Origin: Escherichia coli
Lineage (GTDB): Bacteria; Pseudomonadota; Gammaproteobacteria; Enterobacterales; Enterobacteriaceae
Reading direction: 5' to 3' (one strand)
NCBI RefSeq assembly: GCF_041248615.1
Contig: NZ_CP158426.1
Length of the DNA: 64,000 nt
Below the pieces are notes generated by a model. It worked only from the letters and a program-made list of their open reading frames with translations. It did not search any database and was not told the DNA's origin. Both the position numbers and the translations under genes were made by a program. Numbering within the stretch: the stretch's first letter is position 1; every line of letters begins with the position of its first letter. This document shows positions 27,675 to 54,578 of this stretch, one piece after another.

Positions 27675-29111
27675 ATGGCGCAGTCGAAACTCTATCCAGT
27701 TGTGATGGCAGGTGGCTCCGGTAGCCGCTTATGGCCGCTTTCCCGCGTACTTTACCCCAAGCAGTTTTTATGCCTGAAAGGCGATCTCACCATGCTGCAA
27801 ACCACCATCTGCCGCCTGAACGGCGTGGAGTGCGAAAGCCCGGTGGTGATTTGCAATGAGCAGCACCGCTTTATTGTCGCGGAACAGCTGCGTCAACTGA
27901 ACAAACTCACCGAGAATATTATTCTCGAACCGGCAGGGCGTAACACTGCACCTGCCATTGCACTGGCGGCGCTGGCGGCAAAACGTCATAGCCCGGAGAG
28001 CGACCCATTAATGCTGGTGCTGGCGGCGGATCATGTGATTGCCGATGAAGACGCTTTTCGCACCGCCGTGCGTAATGCTATGCCATATGCCGAAGCGGGC
28101 AAGCTGGTGACCTTCGGCATTGTGCCGGATCTACCAGAAACCGGTTATGGCTATATTCGTCGCGGTGAAGTGTCTGCGGGTGAGCAGGATACGGTGGCCT
28201 TTGAAGTGGCGCAGTTTGTCGAAAAACCAAATCTGGAAACCGCTCAGGCCTATGTGGCAAGCGGCGAATATTACTGGAACAGCGGTATGTTCCTGTTCCG
28301 CGCCGGACGCTATCTCGAAGAACTGAAAAAATATCGCCCGGATATTCTCGACGCCTGTGAAAAAGCGATGAGCGCCGTCGATCCGGATCTCGATTTTATT
28401 CGCGTGGATGAAGAAGCGTTTCTGGCCTGCCCGGAAGAGTCGGTGGATTACGCGGTCATGGAACGTACGGCAGATGCCGTTGTGGTGCCGATGGATGCGG
28501 GCTGGAGCGATGTCGGTTCCTGGTCTTCATTATGGGAGATCAGCGCCCACACCGCCGAGGGCAACGTTTGCCACGGCGATGTGATTAATCACAAAACTGA
28601 AAACAGCTATGTGTATGCCGAATCTGGCCTGGTCACCACCGTCGGGGTGAAAGATTTGGTGGTAGTGCAGACCAAAGATGCGGTGCTGATTGCCGACCGT
28701 AACGCGGTGCAGGATGTGAAAAAAGTGGTCGAGCAGATCAAAGCCGATGGTCGCCATGAGCATCGGGTGCATCGCGAAGTGTATCGCCCGTGGGGCAAAT
28801 ATGACTCTATCGACGCGGGCGACCGCTACCAGGTGAAACGCATCACCGTGAAACCGGGCGAAGGTTTGTCGGTACAGATGCATCATCACCGCGCGGAACA
28901 CTGGGTGGTTGTCGCGGGAACGGCAAAAGTCACTATCGACGGTGATATCAAACTGCTTGGTGAAAACGAGTCCATTTATATTCCGCTGGGGGCGACGCAT
29001 TGCCTGGAAAACCCGGGGAAAATTCCGCTCGATTTAATTGAAGTGCGCTCCGGCTCTTATCTCGAAGAGGATGATGTGGTGCGCTTCGCGGATCGCTACG
29101 GACGGGTGTAG
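27675..29111 (+). CDS. cpsB: Mannose-1-phosphate guanylyltransferase (colanic acid copy)
   Basis: 478 aa. Nucleotidyltransferase motif [12 protein letters not shown] and a C-terminal cupin ([11 protein letters not shown]). Confidence 0.95.
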
Positions 29112-29212: not shown

Positions 29213-30583
29213 ATGAAAAAATTAACCTGCTTTAAAGCCTATGATATTCGCGGGAAATTAGGCGAAGAACTGAATGAAGATATCGCCTGGCGCATTGGTC
29301 GCGCCTATGGCGAATTTCTCAAACCGAAAACCATTGTGTTAGGTGGTGATGCCCGCCTCACCAGCGAAACCTTAAAACTGGCGCTGGCGAAAGGTTTACA
29401 GGATGCGGGCGTCGATGTGCTGGATATCGGCATGTCCGGCACCGAAGAGATCTATTTCGCCACGTTCCATCTCGGCGTGGATGGCGGCATCGAAGTTACC
29501 GCCAGCCATAACCCGATGGATTACAACGGCATGAAACTGGTGCGCGAAGGGGCTCACCCGATCAGCGGTGATACCGGACTGCGCGATGTCCAGCGTCTGG
29601 CAGAAGCCAACGACTTCCCTCCCGTTGATGAAACCAAACGCGGTCGCTATCAGCAAATCAATCTGCGTGACGCTTACGTTGATCACCTGTTCGGTTATAT
29701 CAACGTCAAAAACCTCACGTCGCTCAAGCTGGTGATCAACTCCGGGAACGGCGCGGCGGGTCCGGTGGTGGACGCCATTGAAGCCCGCTTTAAAGCCCTC
29801 GGCGCACCGGTGGAATTAATCAAAGTACACAACACGCCGGACGGCAATTTCCCCAACGGTATTCCTAACCCGCTACTGCCGGAATGCCGCGACGACACCC
29901 GCAATGCGGTCATCAAACACGGCGCGGATATGGGCATTGCCTTTGATGGCGATTTTGACCGCTGTTTCCTGTTTGACGAAAAAGGGCAGTTTATCGAGGG
30001 CTACTACATTGTCGGCCTGCTGGCAGAAGCGTTCCTCGAAAAAAATCCCGGCGCGAAGATCATCCACGATCCACGTCTCTCCTGGAACACCGTTGATGTG
30101 GTGACTGCCGCAGGCGGCACCCCGGTAATGTCGAAAACCGGACACGCCTTTATTAAAGAACGGATGCGCAAGGAAGACGCCATCTACGGTGGCGAAATGA
30201 GCGCCCACCATTACTTCCGTGATTTTGCCTACTGCGACAGCGGCATGATCCCGTGGCTGCTGGTCGCCGAACTGGTGTGCCTGAAAGGGAAAACGCTGGG
30301 CGAACTGGTGCGCGACCGGATGGCAGCGTTTCCGGCAAGCGGTGAGATCAACAGCAAACTGGCGCAACCCGTTGAGGCAATTAATCGCGTCGAACAGCAT
30401 TTTAGCCGTGAGGCGCTGGCGGTGGATCGCACCGATGGCATCAGTATGACCTTTGCCGACTGGCGCTTTAACCTGCGCTCCTCCAACACCGAACCGGTGG
30501 TGCGGTTGAATGTGGAATCACGCGGTGATGTGCCGCTGATGGAAGCGCGAACGCGAACTCTGCTGACGTTGCTGAACGAGTAA
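29213..30583 (+). CDS. cpsG: Phosphomannomutase (colanic acid copy)
   Basis: Track ORF 29165..30583 trimmed to ATG 29213 ([14 protein letters not shown]), giving 456 aa. Phosphohexomutase active site TASHNP. Confidence 0.95.
29222..30545 (+). repeat. Copy 1 of a ~1.3-kb direct repeat (cpsG body) shared with O-cluster manB
   Basis: Aligns by eye with 51647..52970 at a constant offset of 22425 nt. The translations differ at 4 residues before the last 12 codons, and nucleotide differences are scattered. Confidence 0.85.
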
Positions 30584-30637
30584 TGTCGGATCTTCCCTTA
30601 CCCCATTGCGGGTAAGGGGCTAATAACAGGAACAACG

Positions 30638-32033: not shown

Positions 32034-33512
32034 ATGAGCTTACGTGAAAAAACCATCAGCGGCGCGAAGTGGTCGGCGATTGCCACGGTGATTATCATCG
32101 GCCTCGGGCTGGTGCAGATGACCGTGCTGGCGCGGATTATCGACAACCACCAGTTCGGTTTGCTTACCGTGTCGCTGGTGATTATCGCGCTGGCAGATAC
32201 GCTTTCTGACTTCGGTATCGCTAACTCGATTATTCAGCGAAAAGAAATCAGTCACCTTGAACTCACCACGTTGTACTGGCTGAACGTTGGGCTGGGGATC
32301 GTGGTGTGCGTGGCGGTGTTTTTGTTGAGTGATCTCATCGGCGACGTGCTGAATAACCCGGACCTGGCACCGTTGATTAAAACATTGTCGCTGGCGTTTG
32401 TGGTGATCCCCCACGGGCAACAGTTCCGCGCGTTGATGCAAAAAGAGCTGGAGTTCAACAAAATTGGCATGATCGAAACCAGCGCGGTGCTGGCGGGCTT
32501 CACTTTTACAGTGGTTAGTGCCCATTTCTGGCCGCTGGCGATGACCGCGATCCTCGGTTATCTGGTCAATAGTGCGGTGAGAACGCTGCTGTTTGGCTAC
32601 TTTGGCCGCAAAATTTATCGCCCCGGTCTGCATTTCTCGCTGGCGTCAGTGGCACCGAACTTACGTTTTGGTGCCTGGCTGACGGCGGACAGCATCATCA
32701 ACTATCTCAACACCAACCTTTCAACGCTGGTGCTGGCGCGTATTCTCGGCGCGGGCGTGGCAGGGGGATACAACCTGGCGTACAACGTGGCCGTTGTGCC
32801 GCCGATGAAGCTGAACCCAATCATCACCCGCGTGTTGTTTCCGGCATTTGCCAAAATTCAGGACGACACCGAAAAGCTGCGCGTTAACTTCTACAAGCTG
32901 CTGTCGGTGGTGGGGATTATCAACTTTCCGGCGCTGCTCGGGCTGATGGTGGTGTCGAATAATTTTGTACCGCTGGTCTTTGGTGAGAAGTGGAACAGCA
33001 TTATTCCGGTGCTGCAATTGCTGTGTATTGTGGGTCTGCTGCGTTCGGTAGGTAACCCGATTGGTTCGCTGCTGATGGCGAAAGCGCGGGTCGATATCAG
33101 CTTTAAATTCAACGTATTCAAAACCTTTCTGTTTATTCCGGCGATTGTTATTGGTGGGCAGATGGCGGGCGCAATCGGCGTCACGCTTGGCTTCCTGCTG
33201 GTGCAGATTATCAACACCATTCTGAGCTATTTCGTGATGATTAAACCGGTGCTCGGTTCCAGTTATCGCCAGTACATCCTGAGTTTATGGCTGCCGTTTT
33301 ATCTCTCGCTGCCGACGCTGGTGGTCAGTTATGCGCTGGGCATTGTGCTGAAAGGGCAACTGGCGCTGGGGATGCTGCTGGCGGTGCAAATAGCCGCGGG
33401 CGTGCTGGCGTTTGTGGTGATGATTGTGCTGTCGCGCCATCCGCTGGTGGTGGAAGTGAAGCGTCAGTTTTGTCGCAGCGAAAAAATGAAAATGCTTTTA
33501 CGGGCGGGGTGA
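32034..33512 (+). CDS. wzxC: Colanic acid repeat-unit flippase (MOP/Wzx family)
   Basis: 492 aa, highly hydrophobic multi-TM protein. Recognised as WzxC. Confidence 0.92.
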   Translation: MSLREKTISGAKWSAIATVIIIGLGLVQMTVLARIIDNHQFGLLTVSLVIIALADTLSDFGIANSIIQRKEISHLELTTLYWLNVGLGIVVCVAVFLLSDLIGDVLNNPDLAPLIKTLSLAFVVIPHGQQFRALMQKELEFNKIGMIETSAVLAGFTFTVVSAHFWPLAMTAILGYLVNSAVRTLLFGYFGRKIYRPGLHFSLASVAPNLRFGAWLTADSIINYLNTNLSTLVLARILGAGVAGGYNLAYNVAVVPPMKLNPIITRVLFPAFAKIQDDTEKLRVNFYKLLSVVGIINFPALLGLMVVSNNFVPLVFGEKWNSIIPVLQLLCIVGLLRSVGNPIGSLLMAKARVDISFKFNVFKTFLFIPAIVIGGQMAGAIGVTLGFLLVQIINTILSYFVMIKPVLGSSYRQYILSLWLPFYLSLPTLVVSYALGIVLKGQLALGMLLAVQIAAGVLAFVVMIVLSRHPLVVEVKRQFCRSEKMKMLLRAG

Positions 33513-33583
33513 GTTGTTGTTTTAGTCACTGGCAATAAAAACAACAACATAACCTCACCTGGCATCAAATTTATGAGGAAAAA

Positions 33584-34864
33584 ATGAAATTACTTATTCT
33601 GGGCAACCACACTTGCGGCAATCGTGGCGACAGCGCCATCCTGCGCGGCTTACTTGATGCCATCAACATCCTCAATCCACATGCCGAAGTGGACGTGATG
33701 AGCCGCTATCCGGTCAGTTCTTCCTGGCTACTCAACCGCCCGGTAATGGGCGATCCGCTGTTCCTGCAAATGAAACAACACAACAGCGCGGCGGGCGTTG
33801 TCGGACGCGTTAAAAAAGTCCTCCGTCGCCGCTATCAACACCAGGTACTGCTCTCACGCGTCACCGACACTGGCAAGCTGCGTAATATCGCCATCGCCCA
33901 GGGATTCACTGACTTCGTGCGCCTGCTGTCAGGTTACGACGCCATTATTCAGGTCGGCGGATCGTTTTTTGTCGATCTCTACGGCGTGCCGCAGTTTGAA
34001 CACGCGCTTTGCACATTTATGGCGAAAAAGCCGCTGTTTATGATTGGTCACAGCGTCGGCCCCTTCCAGGATGAGCAATTTAACCAACTGGCGAACTACG
34101 TTTTTGGTCACTGCGACGCGCTGATCCTGCGCGAATCGGTCAGCCTTGATCTGATGAAACGCAGCAATATCACCACTGCAAAAGTTGAACATGGCGTCGA
34201 TACCGCGTGGCTGGTCGATCACCACACAGAAGACTTCACCGCCAGCTATGCCGTTCAACACTGGCTGGACGTTGCCGCACAACAGAAAACGGTGGCCATT
34301 ACCCTGCGCGAACTGGCACCGTTCGACAAACGTCTCGGCACCACTCAACAAGCGTATGAAAAAGCCTTTGCTGGGGTGGTCAATCGCATTCTCGATGAAG
34401 GGTATCAGGTGATTGCGCTCTCCACCTGTACGGGTATCGACAGCTATAACAAAGACGACCGCATGGTGGCGATCAACCTGCGCCAGCACATCAGCGATCC
34501 TACCCGTTATCACGTAGTGATGGATGAACTCAACGATCTGGAAATGGGCAAAATTCTGGGTGCCTGTGAACTCACCATCGGTACGCGCCTGCACTCGGCT
34601 ATTATCTCGATGAATTTCTCCACTCCGGCAATTGCCATCAACTACGAACATAAATCCGCCGGGATTATGCAGCAGCTGGGGCTGCCAGAGATGGCAATTG
34701 ATATCCGTCATTTACTGGACGGCAGCCTGCAAGCGATGGTTGCGGATACCTTAGGCCAGCTTCCGGCGCTGAATGCGCGACTTAGTGAAGCCGTCAGTCG
34801 TGAGCGTCAGACAGGAATGCAGATGGTGCAGTCAGTGCTTGAGCGCATCGGGGAGGCGAAATGA
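33584..34864 (+). CDS. wcaK: Colanic acid pyruvyl transferase
   Basis: 426 aa with N-terminus MKLLILGNHTCGNRGDSAIL, typical of polysaccharide pyruvyl transferases. Confidence 0.9.
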   Translation: MKLLILGNHTCGNRGDSAILRGLLDAINILNPHAEVDVMSRYPVSSSWLLNRPVMGDPLFLQMKQHNSAAGVVGRVKKVLRRRYQHQVLLSRVTDTGKLRNIAIAQGFTDFVRLLSGYDAIIQVGGSFFVDLYGVPQFEHALCTFMAKKPLFMIGHSVGPFQDEQFNQLANYVFGHCDALILRESVSLDLMKRSNITTAKVEHGVDTAWLVDHHTEDFTASYAVQHWLDVAAQQKTVAITLRELAPFDKRLGTTQQAYEKAFAGVVNRILDEGYQVIALSTCTGIDSYNKDDRMVAINLRQHISDPTRYHVVMDELNDLEMGKILGACELTIGTRLHSAIISMNFSTPAIAINYEHKSAGIMQQLGLPEMAIDIRHLLDGSLQAMVADTLGQLPALNARLSEAVSRERQTGMQMVQSVLERIGEAK

Positions 34865-37486: not shown

Positions 37487-37660
37487 ATTTGCGACCATTC
37501 CTGGAAAAATGGAGCCATACTTAGGAACAATGCTACTGCAATCCACAACGAAGCGGCGTAACATCACAAGTAATTCAGTAATCAATTCAGGGTAATTGAT
37601 GCTGGCGAAAAAAATCGAACAAGCTATAATTCAGCAACCATTTTACAGGTGGATGAAATA

Positions 37661-38554
37661 ATGACGAATTTAAAAGCAGTTATTCCTGTAGCGGGTCTTG
37701 GGATGCATATGTTGCCTGCCACTAAGGCGATTCCCAAAGAGATGCTACCGATCGTCGATAAGCCAATGATTCAGTACATCGTTGACGAGATTGTGGCTGC
37801 AGGGATCAAAGAAATCCTCCTGGTAACTCACGCTTCCAAGAACGCGGTCGAAAACCACTTCGACACCTCTTATGAATTAGAATCTCTCCTTGAACAGCGC
37901 GTGAAGCGTCAACTGCTGGCGGAAGTACAGTCCATTTGCCCGCCGGGCGTGACAATTATGAACGTGCGTCAGGGCGAACCTTTAGGTTTGGGCCACTCCA
38001 TTTTATGTGCACGACCTGCCATTGGTGACAATCCATTTGTCGTGGTGCTGCCAGACGTTGTGATCGACGACGCCAGCGCCGACCCGCTGCGCTACAACCT
38101 TGCTGCCATGATTGCGCGCTTCAACGAAACGGGCCGCAGCCAGGTGCTGGCAAAACGTATGCCGGGTGACCTCTCTGAATACTCTGTCATCCAGACCAAA
38201 GAGCCGCTGGACCGCGAAGGTAAAGTCAGCCGCATTGTTGAATTCATCGAAAAACCGGATCAGCCGCAGACGCTGGACTCAGACATCATGGCCGTTGGTC
38301 GCTATGTGCTTTCTGCAGATATTTGGCCGGAACTTGAACGCACTCAGCCTGGTGCATGGGGGCGTATTCAGCTGACTGATGCCATCGCTGAACTGGCGAA
38401 AAAACAGTCCGTTGATGCCGTGCTGATGACAGGTGACAGCTACGACTGCGGTAAAAAAATGGGGTATATGCAGGCATTTGTGAAGTATGGACTACGCAAC
38501 CTGAAAGAAGGGGCGAAGTTCCGTAAAGGGATTGAGAAGCTGTTAAGCGAGTAA
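37661..38554 (+). CDS. galF: UTP-glucose-1-phosphate uridylyltransferase-like protein
   Basis: Track ORF 37649..38554 trimmed to ATG 37661 ([14 protein letters not shown]), giving 297 aa. Confidence 0.93.
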
Positions 38555-42398: not shown

Positions 42399-42401
42399 TT
42401 G

Positions 42402-43832
42402 ATGAATAACAAACTAGCCAGGCAAGGATTATTATGGAGCACAATTGAAAGGCTAGGAACGCAAGCCATACAATTATTATTAATGTTGTATTTGGGTAGG
42501 GTTCTTGGACCAAGCTCTTTTGGTTATGTTGGTATGCTAACTTTATTTCTATCATTAGCTCAGGTTCTAATTGATAGTGGATTTAGTGCAGCATTAATTA
42601 GAAAATCGGAGCGTACTGAAAAAGATTATTCGACAGTATTTATATTTAATATTTGTCTATCAATACTAATATATATTGTACTTTATTGTTTATCTTCTTA
42701 TATTGCTTTATTCTATCAAATACCTCTGCTGGAATCTTTACTTGATATTTTAGCATTAACAGTTATAGCAAATGGTCTAACTTTAATCCCCAAGATTCAA
42801 CTCACTGTAGACGTGAATTTTAAGATCCAAGCTAAAAGTTCACTTATCGCTATTACCAGTAGTAGTGTAATAGCGATAACGTTAGCTGCTTTGGGTTATG
42901 GAGTATGGACATTGGTTTTCCAATCGTTATCCTATAGTGTCATAAATTGTATTGTACTGAATATTTATAATCCATGGTATCCAAAAGAGAAATTTTGCTA
43001 TGAAACATTCAAAAAGCTATTTTCATTTAGCAGTAACTTACTAATTGCTGGAGTACTTGAAGCTTTTTATTCAAATATATATCAATTAATTATAGGGAAA
43101 TTTTTTACACCACAGCTTGTAGGGCAATTTACACAGGCTAATCAGATCTCTAGCGTACCTGCAATGACACTTACTAATATTATTCAGAGAGTAACTTATC
43201 CACTTTTTTGTAATATTTATAATGGCAAAGGGAAAATAGATGATGCTTATTTAAACACACTTAAAATTGCAGGCGTTGTAGTTTTTCCAATTCTATTAGG
43301 AATAGGTTTAATCTCGAAGCCATTAGTCTCTGTATTATTAGGAAGTGAGTGGAAATTTACATCTGATATTCTGTTTCTACTTTGTATTGCATTTATGATT
43401 TATCCTATACATGCAATAAATATTAATATCCTACAGGTTCATGGGCGAAGTGATCTTTTTTTGCGTTTGGAAATACTAAAAAAGACATTGATGACAATTA
43501 TTCTTGTCATTACGATGCAAATAAATATAAATGCAATGGTGATTGGTTTAGTTTTACACTCATATCTTTCGTGGTTTTTAAATGGATTATTTAGCCAGAA
43601 AGTATCAACGATCACAATAAGGAAGCAGTTAAAAGAGTTACTACCTATATGGTGTCTATGTTTAATTAGTGGGTTAGGTTCTAACTATATTATAAATGAA
43701 ATAAGTATGGAACCTTTATTAAATATAATATTTACTATTTTATTAAATGCCATTATATACATCACACTAATTCGAATTATGTACAAAGAAATATTTATGA
43801 CTATTATTTCTCTTATAAAAAATAAGGGCTGA
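42402..43832 (+). CDS. wzx: O-antigen flippase (Wzx, MOP family)
   Basis: About 476 aa, AT-rich, with more than 10 predicted TM helices. The track starts at TTG 42399; the ATG at 42402 is more likely. Confidence 0.85.
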   Translation: MNNKLARQGLLWSTIERLGTQAIQLLLMLYLGRVLGPSSFGYVGMLTLFLSLAQVLIDSGFSAALIRKSERTEKDYSTVFIFNICLSILIYIVLYCLSSYIALFYQIPLLESLLDILALTVIANGLTLIPKIQLTVDVNFKIQAKSSLIAITSSSVIAITLAALGYGVWTLVFQSLSYSVINCIVLNIYNPWYPKEKFCYETFKKLFSFSSNLLIAGVLEAFYSNIYQLIIGKFFTPQLVGQFTQANQISSVPAMTLTNIIQRVTYPLFCNIYNGKGKIDDAYLNTLKIAGVVVFPILLGIGLISKPLVSVLLGSEWKFTSDILFLLCIAFMIYPIHAININILQVHGRSDLFLRLEILKKTLMTIILVITMQININAMVIGLVLHSYLSWFLNGLFSQKVSTITIRKQLKELLPIWCLCLISGLGSNYIINEISMEPLLNIIFTILLNAIIYITLIRIMYKEIFMTIISLIKNKG

Positions 43833-43834
43833 AA

Positions 43835-44947
43835 ATGAACGATAAAACTATTCCAGTAACGCAACCTTCTTTGCCGGAACTTGCAGAATTCATGCCTTAC
43901 CTGGAAAAAATATGGAAAAATAAATGGTTGACAAATAATGGACCATTTCATCAAGAACTCGAGGAAAAATTATGTGAATTTTTGGGTGTGCAGCATATCT
44001 CGCTTTTTAACAATGCAACAATTGCATTGATCACAGCATTACAAGCCCTAAGAATAACAGGTGAGGTAATAACAACACCATATTCATTTGTTGCAACTTC
44101 ACATGCTATTTTATGGAATGGACTTACGCCTGTCTTTGTTGATATTGAAAATGATGGATATAATATTGATTACAGAAAAATAGAACAGGCTATTACACCA
44201 AAAACTTCAGCAATTTTACCTGTCCATTGCTACTCAACACCCTGTGAAGTCGAAGAAATTCAAAAAATAGCTGATAATTATGGATTGAAAGTAATCTACG
44301 ACGCAGCACATGCATTCGGTGTAAATTTTAAAGGGCAAAGTTTACTTAACTATGGTGATTTATCAATTCTTAGTTTCCATGCGACGAAAGTCTTCAATAC
44401 ATTTGAAGGTGGGGCAATAATTAGCCCTGATGCTAAAACCAAGTTACGTATAGATCGATTAAAAAACTTTGGTATCGCCGACGAGCTGACTGTGACAGCT
44501 CCAGGAATAAATGGCAAAATGAGTGAAATTAATGCTGCCTTTGGACTTGTTCAGTTAAAGCATATTGAGGGCTCAATATCTAAGCGAAAAATAATTGATA
44601 GTCTTTACCGGAATTTACTGAAAGGGACTCCGGGTATTACTATATTTCCAGGAAATATAAATGCAAATAGCAACTATTCATATTTTCCTATACTCATAGA
44701 TGATGGTTTTCATATGAGTCGTGATCAGGCATATGAATTACTTAAGAAAAATAATATCCTATCTCGAAAGTATTTTTATCCATTAATCAGTAATATGCCT
44801 ATGTATCGAGGATTGATTTCAGCTAGCGTTGATAATCTACCAATAGCCAATAGTGTTGCTGATAAAGTCCTATGCTTGCCAATATATACAGATTTAAATG
44901 AAGAGATTGTTGTGAAAATAACCAAATTATTATTGGGTAAGATGTGA
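43835..44947 (+). CDS. vioA: DegT/DnrJ/EryC1-family PLP aminotransferase, likely dTDP-4-amino-4,6-dideoxy-D-glucose (viosamine) synthase
   Basis: 370 aa with the PLP-lysine context LSFHATKVF. It follows rmlBDAC, precedes an acetyltransferase, and no 3,4-isomerase gene is present. The vioA symbol rests on the O7-like context. Confidence 0.7.
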   Translation: MNDKTIPVTQPSLPELAEFMPYLEKIWKNKWLTNNGPFHQELEEKLCEFLGVQHISLFNNATIALITALQALRITGEVITTPYSFVATSHAILWNGLTPVFVDIENDGYNIDYRKIEQAITPKTSAILPVHCYSTPCEVEEIQKIADNYGLKVIYDAAHAFGVNFKGQSLLNYGDLSILSFHATKVFNTFEGGAIISPDAKTKLRIDRLKNFGIADELTVTAPGINGKMSEINAAFGLVQLKHIEGSISKRKIIDSLYRNLLKGTPGITIFPGNINANSNYSYFPILIDDGFHMSRDQAYELLKKNNILSRKYFYPLISNMPMYRGLISASVDNLPIANSVADKVLCLPIYTDLNEEIVVKITKLLLGKM

Positions 44948-44948
44948 T

Positions 44949-45527
44949 ATGGCCTATTTAGATGAAATACAGTTAAAAGAAATGGGCTTCAAAAGCGTTG
45001 GAGAAAATGTAAAAATATCAGATAAGGCATCTTTTTATGGGTGTGATAATATTAGTATTGGGAATAATGTAAGGATTGATGATTTTTGCGTGTTTTCAGC
45101 TGGAGAGGGTGGTATTGATATACACGATTATATTCATATAGCGGTATATTCTTCAATTATTGGCAAAGGAAAAGTAACTATATCTGACTACGCAAACATT
45201 TCATCTCGAGTCTCAATATATTCCAGTAACGATGATTATTCTGGCAATTATATGTCTAATCCAGTAGTTCCAAGTGAATATACGAATATACATAGCGGTA
45301 CTGTATTTATAGGCAAACATGTTATCATAGGTTGCGGAAGTATTGTTCTTCCGGATGTTATTTTACATGAGGGTGCAGCAATTGGAGCTCTTTCTGTAGT
45401 CAAAGAGGATTGTGAAGCTTTTACGGTAAATGTAGGTATACCAGCTAAACCAATATCTGAAAGAAGCAAGAAATTATTGGAGCTTGAATCTGTATTTAAA
45501 CCAAGCGCTATTGGAGATAATCTGTGA
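44949..45527 (+). CDS. vioB: Hexapeptide-repeat N-acetyltransferase (likely dTDP-viosamine acetyltransferase)
   Basis: 192 aa with left-handed beta-helix repeats (ISIGNNVRIDDFCVF, VIIGCGSIVLPDV). Adjacent to the aminotransferase. Confidence 0.65.
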   Translation: MAYLDEIQLKEMGFKSVGENVKISDKASFYGCDNISIGNNVRIDDFCVFSAGEGGIDIHDYIHIAVYSSIIGKGKVTISDYANISSRVSIYSSNDDYSGNYMSNPVVPSEYTNIHSGTVFIGKHVIIGCGSIVLPDVILHEGAAIGALSVVKEDCEAFTVNVGIPAKPISERSKKLLELESVFKPSAIGDNL

Positions 45528-46270
45528 AGATTCATATTTATTTTCGGCATACGGATATTAGTCGGACAACTAAAAATAATCGGCCTGAGTGGTTTAGTCA
45601 TGAAAATTGTTTTATAAATCTTATAAATACAATAAAAGAATCTAAATATAAAGACCAAATAGCATTTACTTTTATTTTTGATGGATCATTAAACGTTGCT
45701 TCCTTAGATCCGTTATATCAACACTTTGAAAATATCGATATGAATAATAAAAAGATATTCATAATCAATGGAGGAGATCAGCGCAAAGCATGGCGTGAAT
45801 GCGTAAAACTAGTAGATGAAGATCGTCGAGTTGGAAAAATTGATAAAAATGATTTAATATATTTTTTAGAAAATGATTATTTGCATGAGTCTAAATGGAT
45901 TGATGAGATATTTAACTTGGTCAAATCAAATATAAGATGGGATATGGCAACGCTTTATGATCATCCAGATAAATATAGTGAATATTGTGAACATCTTGAT
46001 TCATTAAAAAATAAAAACAAAAAAACTATTGTATTTTATTCTGGGAGTAGGCATTGGAAAATAGCACCAAGTACATGTGCAACATATATTATGAAAGCCA
46101 GGGTTTTTGATAGGACAAAAATAATTCTAAAATTAGCTATTTACGATTACAAATTATTTTTGATACTTACTAAAATATTTAGAATTAGACTTCTTTCACC
46201 TATCCCCGCTCTTTCAACTCATTGTATGGCTTCTTTGTTATCACCTTCAATCAATTGGGATGATTTATAA
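45524..46270 (+). CDS. Hypothetical protein, candidate non-canonical GT-A-like glycosyltransferase
   Basis: 248-aa ORF whose GTG start overlaps the vioB stop. Weak GT-A hints only (KIHIYF beta-strand start, FIFDGS, YFLENDYLH as a DXD-like site). No family recognised. Confidence 0.6.
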   Translation: MKIHIYFRHTDISRTTKNNRPEWFSHENCFINLINTIKESKYKDQIAFTFIFDGSLNVASLDPLYQHFENIDMNNKKIFIINGGDQRKAWRECVKLVDEDRRVGKIDKNDLIYFLENDYLHESKWIDEIFNLVKSNIRWDMATLYDHPDKYSEYCEHLDSLKNKNKKTIVFYSGSRHWKIAPSTCATYIMKARVFDRTKIILKLAIYDYKLFLILTKIFRIRLLSPIPALSTHCMASLLSPSINWDDL

Positions 46271-47091
46271 TGGATTGTAAAAAAAAATTATGCATTGTGG
46301 CCTGTTCTTATACTTTAAAGCCAGAATTCATAATTAATAAATTATATAATTATTTACCAGATTATGAACTAGATGGTGTTGTGATTTCCAATAATCATGT
46401 AGTAGAACAGATTACAATGAAGGGATTTCATATCGAAAACGGGACAAATTCTCTTTTTGAGTTTTCTGCCTATAAGGAAGGAATAGATTTTTTAGAAGAT
46501 AGCTCATTATTACCATCAGGAGTACCAATTCTCATTTTGAATGATACATTGTTCTTGAAACATAATGCAAAATTCTTTTTAAGGAAAATTGTGAGTTATT
46601 ATTCAACAATTCAAAGAACTGAATTGCCTACAATGGCAGGTCGTTTAGATCCTTATAATAATATATGTTACAGTAACCCTTGGAATAATATGAATGGCTA
46701 TATATCTTCCTTTTGTATGCTAATAAATGAAAAATCTGCAAAAATAATTGTTAGTTGCTACAATGAGCTTCCAAAATATTTTTTTAGTAATGATATTGAT
46801 ATTATTGACCCCAAATGGGGAATGCAGATTGAATCAAGACTGAGAGAATTTATTCGTAGTCATTTAATTGATATAGACACAGATACGGTTTGGTATCAAG
46901 CTAAATTGTTACATAATGATAAACAACGAATTAATATTAAAGCTCAATGTGTCTTCATGGAACATTTCATATCAGGGAAGATTGGTGAAAGTGGAATTGT
47001 TGTTTCTATTTTTCCCACATGGAAAGGAAAGGTGTTAAATTTTTTAAACGAGCAATTGGCTAAAATCAAGAGGAAGATTATAATTAAATGA
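46270..47091 (+). CDS. Hypothetical protein, candidate glycosyltransferase of unknown family
   Basis: 273-aa ORF coupled at both ends (TAATG at 46270, ATGA at 47088). No recognisable motif except ILILNDT. The call rests on position in the O-unit block. Confidence 0.55.
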   Translation: MDCKKKLCIVACSYTLKPEFIINKLYNYLPDYELDGVVISNNHVVEQITMKGFHIENGTNSLFEFSAYKEGIDFLEDSSLLPSGVPILILNDTLFLKHNAKFFLRKIVSYYSTIQRTELPTMAGRLDPYNNICYSNPWNNMNGYISSFCMLINEKSAKIIVSCYNELPKYFFSNDIDIIDPKWGMQIESRLREFIRSHLIDIDTDTVWYQAKLLHNDKQRINIKAQCVFMEHFISGKIGESGIVVSIFPTWKGKVLNFLNEQLAKIKRKIIIK

Positions 47092-48263
47092 GGAAAAATT
47101 TTTACACGACACCAATCACATTACTAATTCTTACGCTTAATATTGCTGCAACAATTGTAGTTATAAACAACAGTGAATTATTGATTGGCGATTTAATGGG
47201 GTTTAAATCAGAAACTGTCGTAATAATTCAATCTCTAATTTATATATCTCTTAGCTTATTATTTCTATCGGTATTATATAATGGATTGGAAAAAATAAAA
47301 CCACTTACAACAAAATTAGCTGATTCTAATAGTAGACCGATCGCCATTTTTTTAATTTGTTTAGAATTATTATATATAACATACGTATTTAATACAGGCT
47401 TATTTGTTGCCGGTAATAATGAGCGCGGAGGCGGAGTAATTTCAGCGTTATTTGTATTACTGAATGTTGATGTACTTGTTTTAATATTTCTAACACATGT
47501 TAAAACAAGTAAGTACAAGCCCATTATTATCATGTTGTGGATTATTTCTTTTCTTCAGCGTGGTTGGATATCTTATTTTTTCATTTTGATTTTAATCTCA
47601 TTTATCGATCGTCGATTGAAAAACAAAAAAAATTGGAAAGCTGGGGTAGTATTAATATGTTTTATTCTGGCTCTGCCATTTGTAGAACAGATTAAGAATT
47701 CTATCAGAAGTGGCGAAGCTATCAGCACGCAATTAACTTTTTTTGATTATGCGGATTCTTTTAATCAACAATTTATGAAGGTTGTTGGCAGAGTTCAAAC
47801 AGTTTCACACGTTGCATTTATAACAGATAATATTAATCAACTTCAGAATTTAAAAAATAATGGAGAATCTACTGATTTTTTTGAAGAAAATTTTATTTAT
47901 ATAATTGCTAAAAAATTAGGGAGTGCTGATGATAAGATTAATACTCCAGATTTGCTTGCCAGATATATTTCTCCATCTCTGGATAGCTCATGGAATGTGA
48001 ATCCATCGTTAATTGGTTGGATTTTTATTCAAAATGATTTATACGTTTTACCCATCATATGGGTTGTTTTGCTGTGTTTTCTATTTACAATGCTATCTAA
48101 AATTATTGCGAATGACCTATATGCAATGAATATGAGATGGTTGTTTTGGTTAGTGTTTTTATTTCCGGGTTGGATATTCCAATTCACAGCAGTTATATTT
48201 TCGCTTTTAGTATTTATTTTATTAAAGTACACACTTAGGACTAAAAGAGTAAAACCTTTATGA
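47088..48263 (+). CDS. wzy: O-antigen polymerase (Wzy)
   Basis: 391 aa, very AT-rich, about 10 TM helices with a large loop, and no close recognisable homologue. This is typical of Wzy, and it is the only other polytopic protein besides Wzx. Confidence 0.75.
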   Translation: MRKNFYTTPITLLILTLNIAATIVVINNSELLIGDLMGFKSETVVIIQSLIYISLSLLFLSVLYNGLEKIKPLTTKLADSNSRPIAIFLICLELLYITYVFNTGLFVAGNNERGGGVISALFVLLNVDVLVLIFLTHVKTSKYKPIIIMLWIISFLQRGWISYFFILILISFIDRRLKNKKNWKAGVVLICFILALPFVEQIKNSIRSGEAISTQLTFFDYADSFNQQFMKVVGRVQTVSHVAFITDNINQLQNLKNNGESTDFFEENFIYIIAKKLGSADDKINTPDLLARYISPSLDSSWNVNPSLIGWIFIQNDLYVLPIIWVVLLCFLFTMLSKIIANDLYAMNMRWLFWLVFLFPGWIFQFTAVIFSLLVFILLKYTLRTKRVKPL

Positions 48264-49372
48264 CGAAAATAGTTTTCAATTTACTATCTTTTTCAGAATT
48301 AAAATATTATGGGGTTGGAGTATACTTTAGAGATTTAATTGCAAAAAATATTAATGAAATATTCGATGGGATTGATTGCGAAATAATAGTTGTTCACCAG
48401 GCTAATATCCCTGTTAAAGAATTGTTCAATTTTCCAGAAAACAATAATATTACCTATAATCCTGTAAAAGGCATTAATGGGAAATTTTTGCGTGTTATTT
48501 ACGAACAGATATTTATGCCGATTAAATTTCGTAACTATAACATAATTTATTCCCCAAATAATATTAATCCGATTCTTTTGGGGGCTAAATGTAAGTCAAT
48601 AATTACTATTCATGACTTGTTTCCATTTAGAAAGGCTAATAGATTTGGTCTTCTACAAAGATTGTATCTAAAGTTTTTCACATATATGTGTGCTCACAAA
48701 TCGGAAAAAATCGCTACAGTGTCCAATAATTCAAAAAATGATATTATCAATACCCTTAATGTCAAGAGCGATAAGGTTATTGTAACTTACAATATATTAG
48801 GTGATTTTAAAAAATCCTCTATACACCAATATGATTGTGAACCTTTTTTTTTCTCGGTGGGTGCTTTGCATGAAGATAAACAATACGATTTGATGATAAA
48901 GGCTTTTCTAAAGTTCAAAAAATTAGTCAATGATAATTGTAAATTATTAATTGCTGGGGGTGATCATGGAGCTAAGAAAATTTTACAGGACTTGATTGAT
49001 GAATTAAAATTAAATGACCATGTTCAATTATTAGGATATATCACTGATGAAGATAAGTGGGACTACTATGAAAATTGTTGTGCACTTATCTTACTAGGGA
49101 AATATGAAGGTTTTGGTATTCCTGTATTGGAAGCTATGAGTGTCAATAAGCCATCAATTGTAGCAAATACCGGGGCTCTACCTGAGATCATAGGTAAAGC
49201 AGGATTTGTCATAAATGCTGATATTGATTCAATTTGTGATGCTATGTTAAAAAGCTATTCATATAAAGTTGACCCAAAATTGTTTGAAGATGAATTATCA
49301 CGCTTTTCTACTAATAAACAAATAAATACTTTGCAGCACATGTTTAAGGAAATATGTAAAGATGTCAGATGA
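48260..49372 (+). CDS. GT4-family glycosyltransferase (retaining, mannosyl/hexosyl type)
   Basis: 370 aa with the EX7E motif YEGFGIPVLEAM. Start overlaps the wzy stop. Confidence 0.8.
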   Translation: MTKIVFNLLSFSELKYYGVGVYFRDLIAKNINEIFDGIDCEIIVVHQANIPVKELFNFPENNNITYNPVKGINGKFLRVIYEQIFMPIKFRNYNIIYSPNNINPILLGAKCKSIITIHDLFPFRKANRFGLLQRLYLKFFTYMCAHKSEKIATVSNNSKNDIINTLNVKSDKVIVTYNILGDFKKSSIHQYDCEPFFFSVGALHEDKQYDLMIKAFLKFKKLVNDNCKLLIAGGDHGAKKILQDLIDELKLNDHVQLLGYITDEDKWDYYENCCALILLGKYEGFGIPVLEAMSVNKPSIVANTGALPEIIGKAGFVINADIDSICDAMLKSYSYKVDPKLFEDELSRFSTNKQINTLQHMFKEICKDVR

Positions 49373-50189
49373 CACTCCAAAGTTTTCTGTTTTGATGGCT
49401 ATATACATCAAGGATTCTCCCCTATTTCTCTCTGAGGCTTTACAATCAATTTATAAAAATACGGTTGCCCCAGATGAAGTTATTATTATTCGTGATGGTA
49501 AGGTCACATCTGAACTCAATTCTGTTATTGATAGTTGGAGAAGATATTTAAATATAAAAGATTTCACACTTGAAAAAAATATGGGGTTGGGGGCAGCGTT
49601 AAATTTTGGGTTGAATCAATGTATGCATGATTTAGTAATACGTGCTGATTCTGATGATATAAATAGAACAAATCGATTCGAATGTATACTTGATTTTATG
49701 ACTAAGAATGGTGATGTTCATATTCTTAGCTCTTGGGTTGAAGAGTTCGAATTCAATCCAGGAGATAAGGGCATAATAAAAAAAGTACCAAGTCGGAATT
49801 CTATACTTAAATATTCAAAAAACAGATCTCCTTTTAATCACCCTGCAGTTGCATTTAAAAAGTGTGAAATAATGCGCGTCGGTGGTTATGGAAATGAGTA
49901 CTTATATGAAGATTATGCCCTTTGGTTGAAATCTTTAGCTAATGGATGTAATGGTGATAATATTCAACAAGTTTTAGTTGATATGAGATTTTCAAAGGAA
50001 ACAGCAAAAAGACGAGGTGGAATAAAATATGCCATTTCAGAAATTAAAGCTCAGTATCATTTTTATCGTGCAAATTATATATCATATCAAGACTTTATAA
50101 TAAATATTATCACAAGGATATTTGTTAGACTTCTTCCCACTAGTTTTCGTGGCTATATATATAAAAAAGTTATCAGGAGATTTTTATGA
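49362..50189 (+). CDS. GT2-family glycosyltransferase (WbbD-like, likely acts on GlcNAc-PP-Und)
   Basis: 275 aa with FSVLMAIY, IIIRDG and RADSDDI (DXD). Overlaps the previous gene by 11 nt. Confidence 0.8.
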   Translation: MSDDTPKFSVLMAIYIKDSPLFLSEALQSIYKNTVAPDEVIIIRDGKVTSELNSVIDSWRRYLNIKDFTLEKNMGLGAALNFGLNQCMHDLVIRADSDDINRTNRFECILDFMTKNGDVHILSSWVEEFEFNPGDKGIIKKVPSRNSILKYSKNRSPFNHPAVAFKKCEIMRVGGYGNEYLYEDYALWLKSLANGCNGDNIQQVLVDMRFSKETAKRRGGIKYAISEIKAQYHFYRANYISYQDFIINIITRIFVRLLPTSFRGYIYKKVIRRFL

Positions 50190-51610
50190 GCTCACCTCTT
50201 ATTCCGGTTATATTAAGTGGTGGTAATGGTACTAGGTTATGGCCACTATCTAGAGAGGAATATCCTAAGCAGTTTTTAAAACTAACCGACTCAATATCAA
50301 TGCTGCAATCAACAATATCTCGGTTAGACTCATTAAATACTTCCTCTCCAGTTGTAATATGCAATGAATTACACAGATTTATTGTTGCAGAACAACTCAG
50401 GCACTTAAATAAATTAGATAATAATATTATTTTAGAACCATCTGGTCGCAATACTGCACCTGCTATTTGTATTGCTGCTTTAATTTTAAAAATGAAGCAT
50501 CCAAATGAAAATCCACTTATGCTCGTTCTTCCAGCCGATCACTCCGTAAAAAAAGTCAAAACTTTTTGTAATACAATAAAAAGTGCTATTCCCTTCGCTG
50601 AAGCTGGTAATTTGGTTTCTTTTGGTATTAAACCTACTCATCCTGAGACGGGGTATGGATATATACAAAAAGGCAAAGTGTTATCTGATTCTGATATATA
50701 TGAGGTCAGTGAAGTTAGAACTTTTGTTGAAAAGCCTAATCTTAAAACAGCAGAAAGCTTTATAGAAAAAGATGAGTATTATTGGAATAGTGGTATGTAT
50801 TTGTTTAGTGTTGAACGTTACTTACAAGAGTTATCATTATACCGACCAGACATAGTTAAAGTATGCCAGGAAACTGTTAAAAATATTCATTATGATATGG
50901 ATTTTATTAGATTGGACGATAAAATATTTCGGAACTGTCCACAGGAGTCTATTGATTATGCTGTAATGGAGAAAACAAAGGATGCTGTAGTTGCTACAAT
51001 GGATATCGGTTGGAATGATGTAGGAGCATGGTCTTCGCTTTGGGAATTAGGGAAAAAAGACTCCTCTGGTAATGTTATCACGGGAGACATCGTTTGCCAC
51101 GAGACAGAAAATAGTTATATTTATACTGAGTCTGGATTGGTAGCAACTATTGGTATTCAAGATCTTGTTATTATTCATACTAAAGATTCATTACTGGTTT
51201 CCAGACGTGATTCAGTACAAAATGTAAAAAATATTGTTCAGCATCTTGATTTGTCAGGACGTAAAGAACATAAAGAACATAGGGAAGTATTCAAGTCATG
51301 GGGACGATGTGACTCCATAGATAGTAGTGAAAAGTACCACTATCAGGTCAAACGAATAACAGTTAATCCAAGTGAAAAATTATCGTTGCAATTGCATCAT
51401 CACCGTGCGGAACATTGGGTTGTTGTAATGGGGATTGCTAAAGTTACAGTTGCAGAAGAAATAAAAATTTTAAAAGAGAATGAGTCTGTATATATTCCTG
51501 CAGGTATTAAGCATAGTTTGGAAAATATTGGGACAATACCACTTGTGTTAATAGAAGTTTGGACCGGTTCTTATCTTGCTGATGATGATATCCTTCGATT
51601 TGAAGATTGA
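50186..51610 (+). CDS. manC: Mannose-1-phosphate guanylyltransferase (O-antigen copy)
   Basis: 474 aa with GGNGTRLWPLSR and the cupin [13 protein letters not shown]-rich, and clearly divergent from cpsB (roughly 55-65% aa identity by eye). Confidence 0.93.
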   Translation: MSSPLIPVILSGGNGTRLWPLSREEYPKQFLKLTDSISMLQSTISRLDSLNTSSPVVICNELHRFIVAEQLRHLNKLDNNIILEPSGRNTAPAICIAALILKMKHPNENPLMLVLPADHSVKKVKTFCNTIKSAIPFAEAGNLVSFGIKPTHPETGYGYIQKGKVLSDSDIYEVSEVRTFVEKPNLKTAESFIEKDEYYWNSGMYLFSVERYLQELSLYRPDIVKVCQETVKNIHYDMDFIRLDDKIFRNCPQESIDYAVMEKTKDAVVATMDIGWNDVGAWSSLWELGKKDSSGNVITGDIVCHETENSYIYTESGLVATIGIQDLVIIHTKDSLLVSRRDSVQNVKNIVQHLDLSGRKEHKEHREVFKSWGRCDSIDSSEKYHYQVKRITVNPSEKLSLQLHHHRAEHWVVVMGIAKVTVAEEIKILKENESVYIPAGIKHSLENIGTIPLVLIEVWTGSYLADDDILRFED

Positions 51611-51643
51611 TATGGTAGAGCTTAGAAATAGAGAGTCTTAATA

Positions 51644-53008
51644 ATGCTAACTTGCTTTAAAGCTTATGATATTCGCGGGAAACTAGGCGAAGAACTGAAT
51701 GAAGATATCGCCTGGCGCATTGGGCGTGCCTATGGCGAATTTCTCAAACCGAAAACCATTGTGTTAGGCGGTGATGTCCGCCTCACCAGCGAAACCTTAA
51801 AACTGGCGCTGGCGAAAGGTTTACAGGATGCGGGCGTCGATGTGCTGGATATCGGTATGTCCGGCACCGAAGAGATCTATTTCGCCACGTTCCATCTCGG
51901 CGTGGATGGCGGCATTGAAGTTACCGCCAGCCATAATCCGATGGATTATAACGGCATGAAGCTGGTGCGCGAGGGGGCTCGCCCGATCAGCGGGGATACC
52001 GGACTGCGCGATGTCCAGCGCCTGGCAGAAGCCAACGACTTCCCCCCCGTTGACGAAACCAAACGCGGTCGCTATCAGCAAATCAATCTGCGTGACGCTT
52101 ACGTTGATCACCTGTTCGGTTATATCAATGTCAAAAACCTCACGCCGCTCAAGCTGGTGATTAACTCCGGGAACGGCGCGGCGGGTCCGGTGGTGGACGC
52201 TATCGAAGCCCGCTTTAAAGCCCTCGGCGCACCTGTGGAATTAATCAAAGTACACAACACGCCGGACGGCAATTTCCCCAACGGTATTCCTAACCCGCTG
52301 CTGCCGGAATGCCGCGACGACACCCGCAATGCAGTCATCAAACACGGCGCGGATATGGGCATTGCCTTTGATGGCGATTTTGACCGCTGTTTCCTGTTTG
52401 ACGAAAAAGGGCAGTTTATCGAGGGCTACTACATTGTCGGTCTTCTGGCAGAAGCGTTCCTCGAAAAAAATCCCGGCGCGAAGATCATCCACGATCCGCG
52501 TCTCTCCTGGAACACCGTTGATGTGGTGACCGCCGCGGGCGGCACTCCGGTGATGTCGAAAACCGGACACGCCTTTATTAAAGAACGTATGCGCAAGGAA
52601 GACGCCATCTACGGTGGCGAAATGAGCGCCCACCACTATTTCCGTGATTTCGCTTACTGCGACAGCGGCATGATCCCGTGGCTGCTGGTCGCCGAACTGG
52701 TGTGTCTGAAAGGAAAAACGCTGGGCGAACTGGTGCGCGACCGGATGGCGGCGTTTCCGGCAAGCGGTGAGATCAACAGCAAACTGGCGCACCCCGTTGA
52801 GGCGATTAATCGCGTCGAACAGCATTTTAGCCGCGAGGCGCTGGCGGTGGATCGCACCGATGGCATCAGCATGACCTTTGCCGACTGGCGCTTTAACCTG
52901 CGCTCCTCCAACACCGAACCGGTGGTGCGGTTGAATGTGGAATCGCGCGGTGATGTACCGTTGATGGAAGAAAAGACAAAACTTATCCTTGAGTTACTGA
53001 ACAAGTAA
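51644..53008 (+). CDS. manB: Phosphomannomutase (O-antigen copy, mosaic with cpsG-like body)
   Basis: 454 aa with TASHNP. Differs from CpsG at 4 residues (A/V, H/R, S/P, Q/H) until the last 12 codons, which diverge ([13 protein letters not shown] vs [13 protein letters not shown]). Confidence 0.93.
51647..52970 (+). repeat. Copy 2 of the ~1.3-kb direct repeat (manB body)
   Basis: GC-rich tract matching 29222..30545, embedded between AT-rich manC and the AT-rich manB 3' tail. Confidence 0.85.
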
Positions 53009-53171
53009 TTCAGTAATTTCATATAAATGGGTTTTAAAAAACGGAAAAGATGAGATATCCGGTGTGGTATAGCCAAGGTAATGCTATTCAGTATCTCTAT
53101 GAGTGAGTTAACATCTATACCACATTTAAGCCGCACACTTCGCGGTGACCACCCCCTGACAGGAGTAAACA

Positions 53172-54578
53172 ATGTCAAAGCAACAGATCGGCGTCGTCGG
53201 TATGGCAGTGATGGGGCGCAACCTTGCGCTCAACATCGAAAGCCGTGGTTATACCGTCTCTATTTTCAACCGTTCCCGTGAAAAGACGGAAGAAGTGATT
53301 GCCGAAAATCCAGGCAAGAAACTGGTTCCTTACTATACGGTGAAAGAGTTTGTTGAATCTCTGGAAACGCCTCGTCGCATCCTGTTAATGGTGAAAGCAG
53401 GTGCAGGCACGGATGCTGCTATTGATTCCCTCAAACCATATCTCGATAAAGGCGACATCATCATCGATGGTGGTAACACCTTCTTCCAGGACACCATTCG
53501 TCGTAACCGTGAGCTTTCTGCCGAAGGCTTTAACTTTATCGGTACCGGTGTTTCTGGTGGTGAAGAAGGTGCGCTGAAAGGGCCTTCCATTATGCCTGGT
53601 GGGCAGAAAGAAGCCTATGAACTGGTTGCGCCGATCCTGACCAAAATCGCTGCAGTGGCTGAAGACGGTGAGCCATGCGTTACCTATATTGGTGCTGATG
53701 GTGCAGGTCACTATGTGAAGATGGTTCACAACGGTATTGAATACGGTGATATGCAGCTGATTGCTGAAGCCTATTCTCTGCTTAAAGGTGGCCTGAACCT
53801 CACCAACGAAGAACTGGCGCAGACCTTTACTGAGTGGAATAACGGTGAACTGAGCAGTTACCTGATCGACATCACCAAAGATATCTTCACCAAAAAAGAT
53901 GAAGACGGTAACTACCTGGTTGATGTGATCCTGGATGAAGCGGCTAACAAAGGTACCGGTAAATGGACCAGCCAGAGCGCGCTGGATCTCGGCGAACCGC
54001 TGTCGCTGATTACCGAGTCTGTGTTTGCACGTTATATCTCTTCTCTGAAAGATCAGCGTGTTGCCGCATCTAAAGTTCTCTCTGGTCCGCAAGCACAGCC
54101 AGCAGGCGACAAGGCTGAGTTCATCGAAAAAGTTCGTCGTGCGCTGTATCTGGGCAAAATCGTTTCTTACGCCCAGGGCTTCTCTCAGCTGCGTGCTGCG
54201 TCTGAAGAGTACAACTGGGATCTGAACTACGGCGAAATCGCGAAGATTTTCCGTGCTGGCTGCATCATCCGTGCGCAGTTCCTGCAGAAAATCACCGATG
54301 CTTATGCCGAAAATCCGCAGATCGCTAACCTGCTGCTGGCTCCGTACTTCAAGCAAATTGCCGATGACTACCAGCAGGCGCTGCGTGATGTCGTTGCTTA
54401 TGCAGTACAGAACGGTATTCCGGTTCCGACCTTCTCCGCAGCGGTTGCCTATTACGACAGCTACCGTGCTGCTGTTCTGCCTGCGAACCTGATCCAGGCA
54501 CAGCGTGACTATTTTGGTGCGCATACTTATAAGCGTATTGATAAAGAAGGCGTGTTCCATACCGAATGGCTGGATTAA
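53172..54578 (+). CDS. gnd: 6-phosphogluconate dehydrogenase, decarboxylating
   Basis: 468 aa with Rossmann [15 protein letters not shown]. Recognised as Gnd. Confidence 0.97.

Follow-up and report, generated by a model that had tools for sequence, protein, structure and literature searches.

The manB (rfbK) gene considered here lies in a 64,000-nucleotide (nt) stretch of the Escherichia coli contig NZ_CP158426.1 (the window), whose list of open reading frames (ORFs) identifies it as the colanic-acid/O-antigen/gnd locus. Sequence comparison confirmed that this gene is a chimera, composed of a GC-rich body of the type of cpsG, the resident colanic-acid paralogue, and an AT-rich tail of O-antigen type. 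Most probably, it represents an old chimeric colanic-acid-like manB module, which recombination keeps similar to cpsG and which is common to many O-types; the placing of the tract as such a module, and not as a strain-specific event, is the contribution of the present analysis. The O-antigen cluster was typed as O7 from its central genes (42399–50189), which 94 complete E. coli genomes carry at an identity of at least 99%, and the window sequence is 100% identical to NZ_LT599825.1.

Chimeric structure of manB

The elements of the chimera and of its immediate surroundings, in window coordinates, are as follows (GC given as a fraction).

29213–30583, plus strand: cpsG, the resident colanic-acid paralogue (true ATG at 29213; NCBIfam CpsG, 1050 bits)
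50186–51610, plus strand: manC, the unreplaced low-GC partner gene (GC 0.347; Pfam NTP_transferase and MannoseP_isomer)
51611–51647, plus strand: manC–manB spacer, manB ATG and first base of codon 2; O7-specific, without similarity to the region upstream of cpsG
51644–53008, plus strand: manB (rfbK), predicted intact chimeric phosphomannomutase of 454 amino acids (aa) (ORF and translation; Pfam, NCBIfam)
51648–52970, plus strand: manB body, GC-rich, cpsG (colanic-acid) type (48/1323 differences from the resident cpsG; GC 0.560)
51910–52456, plus strand: internal tract separating two O7 manB alleles (19 clustered synonymous differences)
52971–53008, plus strand: manB tail, AT-rich, O-antigen type, last 12 codons and stop (17/38 differences from cpsG; GC 0.289)
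53009–53103, plus strand: AT-rich spacer accompanying the tail in manB-terminated O-clusters (GC 0.337; aligned across six non-O7 loci, L001–L006, and O39)
53104–53171, plus strand: gnd upstream/leader region, common to many E. coli of any O-type (partial matches)

Since manB sits 22,425 bp downstream of the resident cpsG in direct orientation, the two genes were compared in ungapped register at an offset of 22425. They are unrelated upstream of position 51648 and 96.4% identical from there to 52970, and the mismatch frequencies of body and tail listed above differ with a Fisher p value of 5e-14. Maximum chi-square analysis placed the breakpoint at 52971 (permutation p ≤ 0.0005), which is as sharp a boundary as a gene-conversion tract should have.

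A first-pass annotation, made from the sequence alone, had described a near match between manB and cpsG from about codon 2 to 52970, a 3′ junction inside the gene and, after it, 12 final codons that are AT-rich and dissimilar to those of cpsG. The breakpoint, GC and identity calculations bear out this description: divergence along the gene is not uniform, and the boundaries are sharp and significant. The four aa differences counted between the ManB body and CpsG were recovered as well (V45A, R113H, P168S and H383Q), both tail peptides read exactly as they had been given, and the estimate of about 8 nt differences in the first ~200 nt came close to the 7 mismatches counted over the tract's first 200 nt. 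The 5′ junction needs correction. It had been assigned to the manC–manB spacer; in fact manB itself contains the edge, just past the ATG at codon 2 (51647/51648), and lacks the two Lys codons of cpsG. Position 51611, from which the mosaic had been reported, is the first base of the manC–manB spacer and not the start of the tract.

Base composition was compared along the locus. The GC content is 0.560 in the manB body and 0.553 in cpsB, the colanic-acid counterpart of manC; the corresponding values are 0.347 for manC, 0.289 for the tail, 0.337 for the spacer at 53009–53103 and 0.307 for the central O7 genes. manC shares only 58% nucleotide identity with cpsB, in agreement with its earlier description as AT-rich and moderately cpsB-like. 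With an identity to cpsG above 90%, a colanic-acid-like GC content and a position between galF and gnd, apart from the cpsG copy, manB has the properties of a colanic-acid-like manB. Its 454-aa frame is open and contains the TASHNP active-site motif and four PGM_PMM domains (I–IV), and the NCBIfam model "phosphomannomutase CpsG" scores it at 1048 bits (cut-off 801); ManB is thus predicted to be an intact phosphomannomutase of the colanic-acid-like class.

The manB tail is identical to the cpsG tail at 25 of 42 nt, near the 58% found for manC and cpsB. It retains the manB reading frame, its composition is O-cluster-like, and it encodes the C-terminal pattern LM-EKT--IL----K, which is common to the RfbK protein of O111.

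manB and cpsG alleles in O7 strains and in the species

The first-pass annotation had further attributed the chimera to conversion of an imported low-GC manB by the resident cpsG. The cpsG-type interior and the tail left behind it agree with conversion of such a gene; the resident cpsG as an identifiable recent donor does not stand up to comparison of strains. The O7 sample consisted of the window and eight further loci (IAI39, CE10, ST70, AR_0013, 3-72, Z142-4, T309.Ta3 and E. coli B). ManB is identical in all nine strains (WP_000954427.1), CpsG occurs in five variants, and the gnd alleles differ. The O7 manB allele therefore stays with the O7 cluster irrespective of which cpsG allele is resident, and the tract, whose strain specificity the first-pass annotation had left to be checked, is neither specific to one strain nor variable with the cpsG allele. 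One manB sequence in the face of several cpsG alleles is an outcome that the annotation itself had named as refuting its reading.

In each O7 strain, manB differs from its own resident cpsG at 44–61 of 1316 sites, a range like that separating the cpsG alleles of unrelated strains (32–53 of 1316 sites); expressed per 1251 nt, cpsG–cpsG pairs differ at 31–50 positions and manB–cpsG pairs at 30–58. The manB tract is no closer to the resident cpsG than to the cpsG of other strains. Against the resident cpsG, uninterrupted identity extends over 107 nt at most, a length at chance level (permutation p = 0.60) that gives no signal of recent conversion. Because ManB is constant across five CpsG variants and this run is no longer than chance predicts, the resident gene as an identifiable recent donor of the manB body is not supported. 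Recent conversion by the resident cpsG was rejected, the 3.6% divergence being that of unrelated alleles and the longest-run p value being 0.60.

Two manB alleles were distinguished among O7 genomes: 18 genomes have the window type and 72 the type of IAI39 and E. coli B. The alleles are separated by 19 synonymous sites within 51910–52456 (clustering permutation p < 1e-5) and by one further site, 52961; the remainder of the O7 cluster is at least 99.9% identical between the two groups. When both versions of the 51910–52456 tract were used as megablast queries against 5,426 E. coli genomes, no match of at least 99% was obtained outside O7/E. coli B, and the best match there was the manB of O58 (98.0%).

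A wider comparison used a sample of 12 distinct manB and 6 distinct cpsG bodies (18 alleles), which is not the whole collection. No fixed manB–cpsG differences were found among these alleles outside 52971–53003: all of them fall within the tail, and the two genes have 53 shared polymorphic sites. Mean differences per 1251 nt were 38.9 for manB–manB, 43.2 for cpsG–cpsG and 44.5 for manB–cpsG pairs, and all four gametes were observed in 1633 of 3570 informative site pairs. The absence of fixed differences, the shared polymorphisms and the equal distances are those of concerted evolution, as far as 18 alleles only can tell. At species level, the bodies of manB and cpsG constitute a single pool of recombining alleles.

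Under concerted evolution, the distance between manB and cpsG should also be smaller within a genome than between genomes, but the within-genome values (44–61) are not below the between-genome values; this comparison covers the nine O7 strains and not the cpsG of the six non-O7 strains (L001–L006). Since paralogues of the same genome are no closer than those of different genomes, homogenisation is not dominated by recent within-genome exchange. It would seem that exchange operates across the species pool, or else that it is slow relative to recombination between strains. A 656-nt segment of the body gave 5686 matching places in 4677 genomes, and hence roughly 1000 of the 5,426 genomes have a second cpsG-type copy.

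The 3′ module and the proposed origin of the chimera

The distribution of the region downstream of the breakpoint was examined separately. The tail and spacer (52966–53171) are present at at least 80% coverage in 434 genomes, and the O7 manC at at least 99% identity in 97, E. coli B included. Genomes without the tail–spacer module match only query positions 139–206 (33% coverage), corresponding to the gnd leader region (53104–53171), which is alignable with Citrobacter braakii too.

The identical 3′ junction (...GATGGAAG/AAAAGACAAAAC..., the slash marking the boundary), with the tail and the ~95-bp spacer, was found in the O58, O88, O93 and O39 clusters and in those of K-15KW01 (a galE-containing type), GSH8M-2 and STLIN_13 (fucose-containing types); counting all matches, at least eight O-type clusters other than O7 have this module. 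In all of these, manB is cpsG-like, encodes ~456–459 aa and forms the end of the cluster before the gnd leader. The tail and the ~95-bp spacer are 92–100% identical across the O-types of this O7-type group. The upstream sequence differs in every O-type, and so does the 5′ edge, which never lies beyond the first 5–8 codons, as is seen from the ManB N-termini: MLTC in O7, MSSLPC, MNCLTC, MEKLTC and MKKLTC in others and MPKNRVITSF in O39. The 3′ junction is thus specific neither to O7 nor to this strain; it travels with a common manB–tail–spacer–gnd flank. The manC gene of O88 (strain HN257, locus L005, 3227–4654) has a GC content of 0.466, compared with 0.33–0.38 in the other O-cluster manC genes; it carries the name cpsB in the annotation of the Prokaryotic Genome Annotation Pipeline (PGAP) and may be partly mosaic with cpsB.

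A scan for the tail peptide (M-EEKTKLIL) in one genome per species (185,579 species) yielded C. braakii and four irrelevant matches, and this tail type is thus not confined to E. coli. In C. braakii ATCC 51113 (NZ_NAEW01000002.1, locus L017), four ORFs on the minus strand (7765–6539, 6542–5103, 4996–3605 and 3432–2026) correspond in order to wcaI (80% aa identity), cpsB (92% aa identity), a GC-rich cpsG-type gene with an O-antigen-type tail, and gnd. The body of the cpsG-type gene has 81% nucleotide identity to E. coli cpsG, and its tail peptide matches that of E. coli at 12 of 13 aa. The colanic-acid cluster of this type strain appears to have been fused to gnd, as in the deletions described below for O14 and for evolution experiments; alternatively, this may be the normal Citrobacter layout.

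The O7 manB probably acquired its present form as follows: (i) a low-GC manB would originally have closed an O-antigen cluster on the 3′ side, adjacent to gnd, (ii) the colanic-acid cpsG, ~22 kb away, would have supplied a new interior by homologous recombination or gene conversion, and (iii) of the earlier sequence, only the final 12 codons and the AT-rich spacer leading to gnd would have survived the replacement. In all the chimeras compared, the edges fall on the outermost blocks of nucleotide conservation, which encode CFKAYDIRG on the 5′ side and an 11-residue stretch on the 3′ side, both recognisable in O111 rfbK. Exchange would presumably spread outward until homology ends, and the ends of the tract would ratchet to these two blocks; a limitation of cpsG exchange to homology boundaries would explain why the junctions are both clean and recurrent. 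The first-pass annotation had called the junctions unusually clean, an impression that does not hold, edges at the outermost conserved blocks being the norm for the manB family. Its composition, its retained reading frame and C-terminal pattern and its low-GC partner manC all suggest that the tail is a remnant of the imported low-GC manB.

Several points weigh against this origin. The scan described above, with one genome for each of the 185,579 species, contained no wholly low-GC manB with this tail; the tail is only 38 nt long and matches the O111 tail and the cpsG tail equally, at 6 of 13 aa each. The exact matches between O111 rfbK and cpsG in the conserved blocks are ~8 nt, a short length for exchange that depends on RecA. 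The allele pool was sampled with 6 cpsG and 12 manB alleles, and exchange may run within genomes or between strains.

Within the proposed origin, the age of the 3′ junction deserves separate mention. Because the C. braakii body is only 81% identical and yet the tail is conserved at 12 of 13 aa, the junction may be a single ancient boundary, which pre-dates the diversification of many E. coli O-types and is common to E. coli and Citrobacter, the interior having been continually re-homogenised with the cpsG of each species. We put this forward tentatively, as somewhat less probable than its opposite. If true, manB–gnd would be a long-lived recombination anchor, its conversion tracts ratcheting outward to fixed limits of homology, and would provide a general rule for where the junctions of paralogue conversion settle.

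Common descent of the 3′ end also bears on the idea of convergence, according to which the low-GC manB of each O-type was overwritten separately by cpsG, the junctions coinciding because conserved blocks set the limits of homology. The O157 manB, an independent case, has its own tail and a junction only ~10 nt away, and the 5′ edges, different as they are among O-types, all lie within the first 5–8 codons. Nevertheless, the 92–100% identity of the tail together with ~95 bp of non-coding spacer across O-types argues for common descent of the 3′ end, and convergence is therefore unlikely. It is still less likely that no low-GC manB was ever replaced, and that a cpsG duplicate was inserted beside gnd, the AT-rich sequence of its 3′ end having arisen by rebuilding or by drift, so that the tail would be no remnant of another manB. 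Such a course would fit the failure to find a wholly low-GC manB with an O7-type tail when one genome per species was scanned, and the equidistance of the tail from the cpsG and O111 tails. The tail, however, keeps the frame and length of ManB and the C-terminal pattern that it has in common with O111 RfbK, its peptide is nearly the same in E. coli and C. braakii (12 of 13 aa), and the low-GC manC, with its 58% identity to cpsB, is expected of an imported low-GC manC–manB pair such as that of O111. Finally, conversion of an imported low-GC O7 manB by the resident cpsG in this strain or its recent ancestors, leaving a strain- or lineage-specific tract, has in its favour a paralogue 22 kb upstream in the same orientation, a sharply bounded tract and the manB–cpsG recombination observed experimentally in E. 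coli B, but is highly improbable given 48 differences from the resident gene (the level of a random allele, with a chance-level longest run), a single ManB across nine O7 strains whose CpsG falls into five variants, and the presence of the O7 3′ junction, tail and spacer in other O-types.

Locus context and comparison with known systems

The remaining genes of the locus are arranged as follows.

27675–29111: cpsB
between cpsG and galF: wcaJ to wcaM
37649–38554: galF
after galF, in order: rmlBDAC, wzx, vioAB, glycosyltransferases, wzy, wbbD, manC, manB, gnd and ugd
53172–54578: gnd

Directly after the cpsG stop codon and before wcaJ lies a GC-rich inverted repeat (CCCTTACCCCATTGCGGGTAAGGG, 30593–30620), which is absent after manB and looks like a stem-loop or an element of the repetitive extragenic palindromic (REP) kind. 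Among the O7 strains, wzy of CE10 (O7:K1; locus L008, 19690–20864) and manC of ST70 (O7:H15; locus L009, 22788–24211) are frameshifted and annotated as pseudogenes; these may be changes that inactivate the O antigen in clinical isolates, or sequencing errors. The wzxC–wcaK intergenic region is 563 bp long in 3-72 and T309.Ta3 (loci L011 and L013, 5622–6186), compared with 72 bp in the window (33512–33584). Indels of REP elements have been reported at this site (Iguchi et al. 2011, PMC3158064) and are a possible explanation of the longer form.

As two 1.3-kb direct repeats, manB and cpsG constitute a recurrent deletion hotspot, at which the 22 kb between them, and with it the O-antigen genes and some of those for colanic acid, can be lost. 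Because manB belongs to a recombining pool with cpsG, it is a poor marker for O-typing and phylogeny. In every fetched record (L001–L014, L020 and L022), PGAP annotates the O-cluster manB as "cpsG: colanic acid biosynthesis phosphomannomutase CpsG"; only the low-GC gene of O111 carries the PGAP name rfbK, and the other genomes thus appear to hold two cpsG genes. Placed on an O-antigen manB, the label "colanic acid biosynthesis phosphomannomutase CpsG" can mislead cluster typing. These practical consequences are modest, and none is new in principle.

Marolda and Valvano are said to have found the O7 RfbK protein very similar to CpsG and unlike the RfbK of Salmonella LT2, and Salmonella enterica O-antigen clusters with a colanic-acid-like manB next to gnd were reportedly described by Jensen and Reeves. 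The rfbK gene of O111 encodes an enzyme of the same family as O7 manB and is likewise placed after a low-GC manC. Unlike O7 manB, it has a GC content of 0.352 and only 48–77% identity to cpsG throughout, with no mosaic; it is the picture of an unreplaced manB.

Chimeric manB/cpsG genes are already known from O157, from O14 and from E. coli B with its remnant O7 cluster, and the remark in the first-pass annotation that such mosaicism had been described before agrees with the literature on these three. The O157 manB has a cpsG-like GC-rich body (92–100% identity per 60-nt window) and an AT-rich tail (EKKTKALLKLLSE). It resembles O7 manB in its low-GC manC partner (0.376), in the AT-rich nature of the tail and in a junction located within the same conserved block, but its tail is a different one, the junction lies ~10 nt earlier and the gene is not adjacent to gnd; these three differences mark it as an independent chimera. 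Where Iguchi et al. 2011 (PMC3158064) cite Samuel et al., the original O157 manB is described as replaced by the colanic-acid gene, and gene conversion with cpsG has been proposed for it (Iguchi et al. 2011, PMC3158064).

In E. coli B, manB and cpsG are 96% identical, and in 10 of 12 populations of the long-term evolution experiment the DNA between them was lost through their recombination (Raeside et al. 2014, PMC4173774). The resulting chimeric phosphomannomutase was described in a 2026 paper (PMC13626634), together with such alleles in natural isolates, arising via recurrent manB/cpsG recombination. The O7 cluster of E. coli B (REL606, BL21) is interrupted by IS1, and the ManB of E. coli B-LamR is identical to that of the window; the published 96% identity and the 23,293-bp manB–cpsG deletions thus describe this locus. 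E. coli B differs from the window in having the other O7 manB allele, a different cpsG allele and IS1 in wbbD (locus L014, 4622–5319, in E. coli B-LamR). It is because of this IS1 that the manB–cpsG offset is 23,293 bp in E. coli B, compared with 22,425 bp in the window.

Recombination between the two manB genes as the cause of O14 cluster loss has been covered in a review (Liu et al. 2019, PMC7685785). The O14 deletion and the C. braakii locus involve the same two paralogues as the window and share its O-antigen-type tail. Reciprocal recombination removed everything between the paralogues in O14, and apparently in C. braakii, whereas the window keeps both copies and the 22 kb between them.

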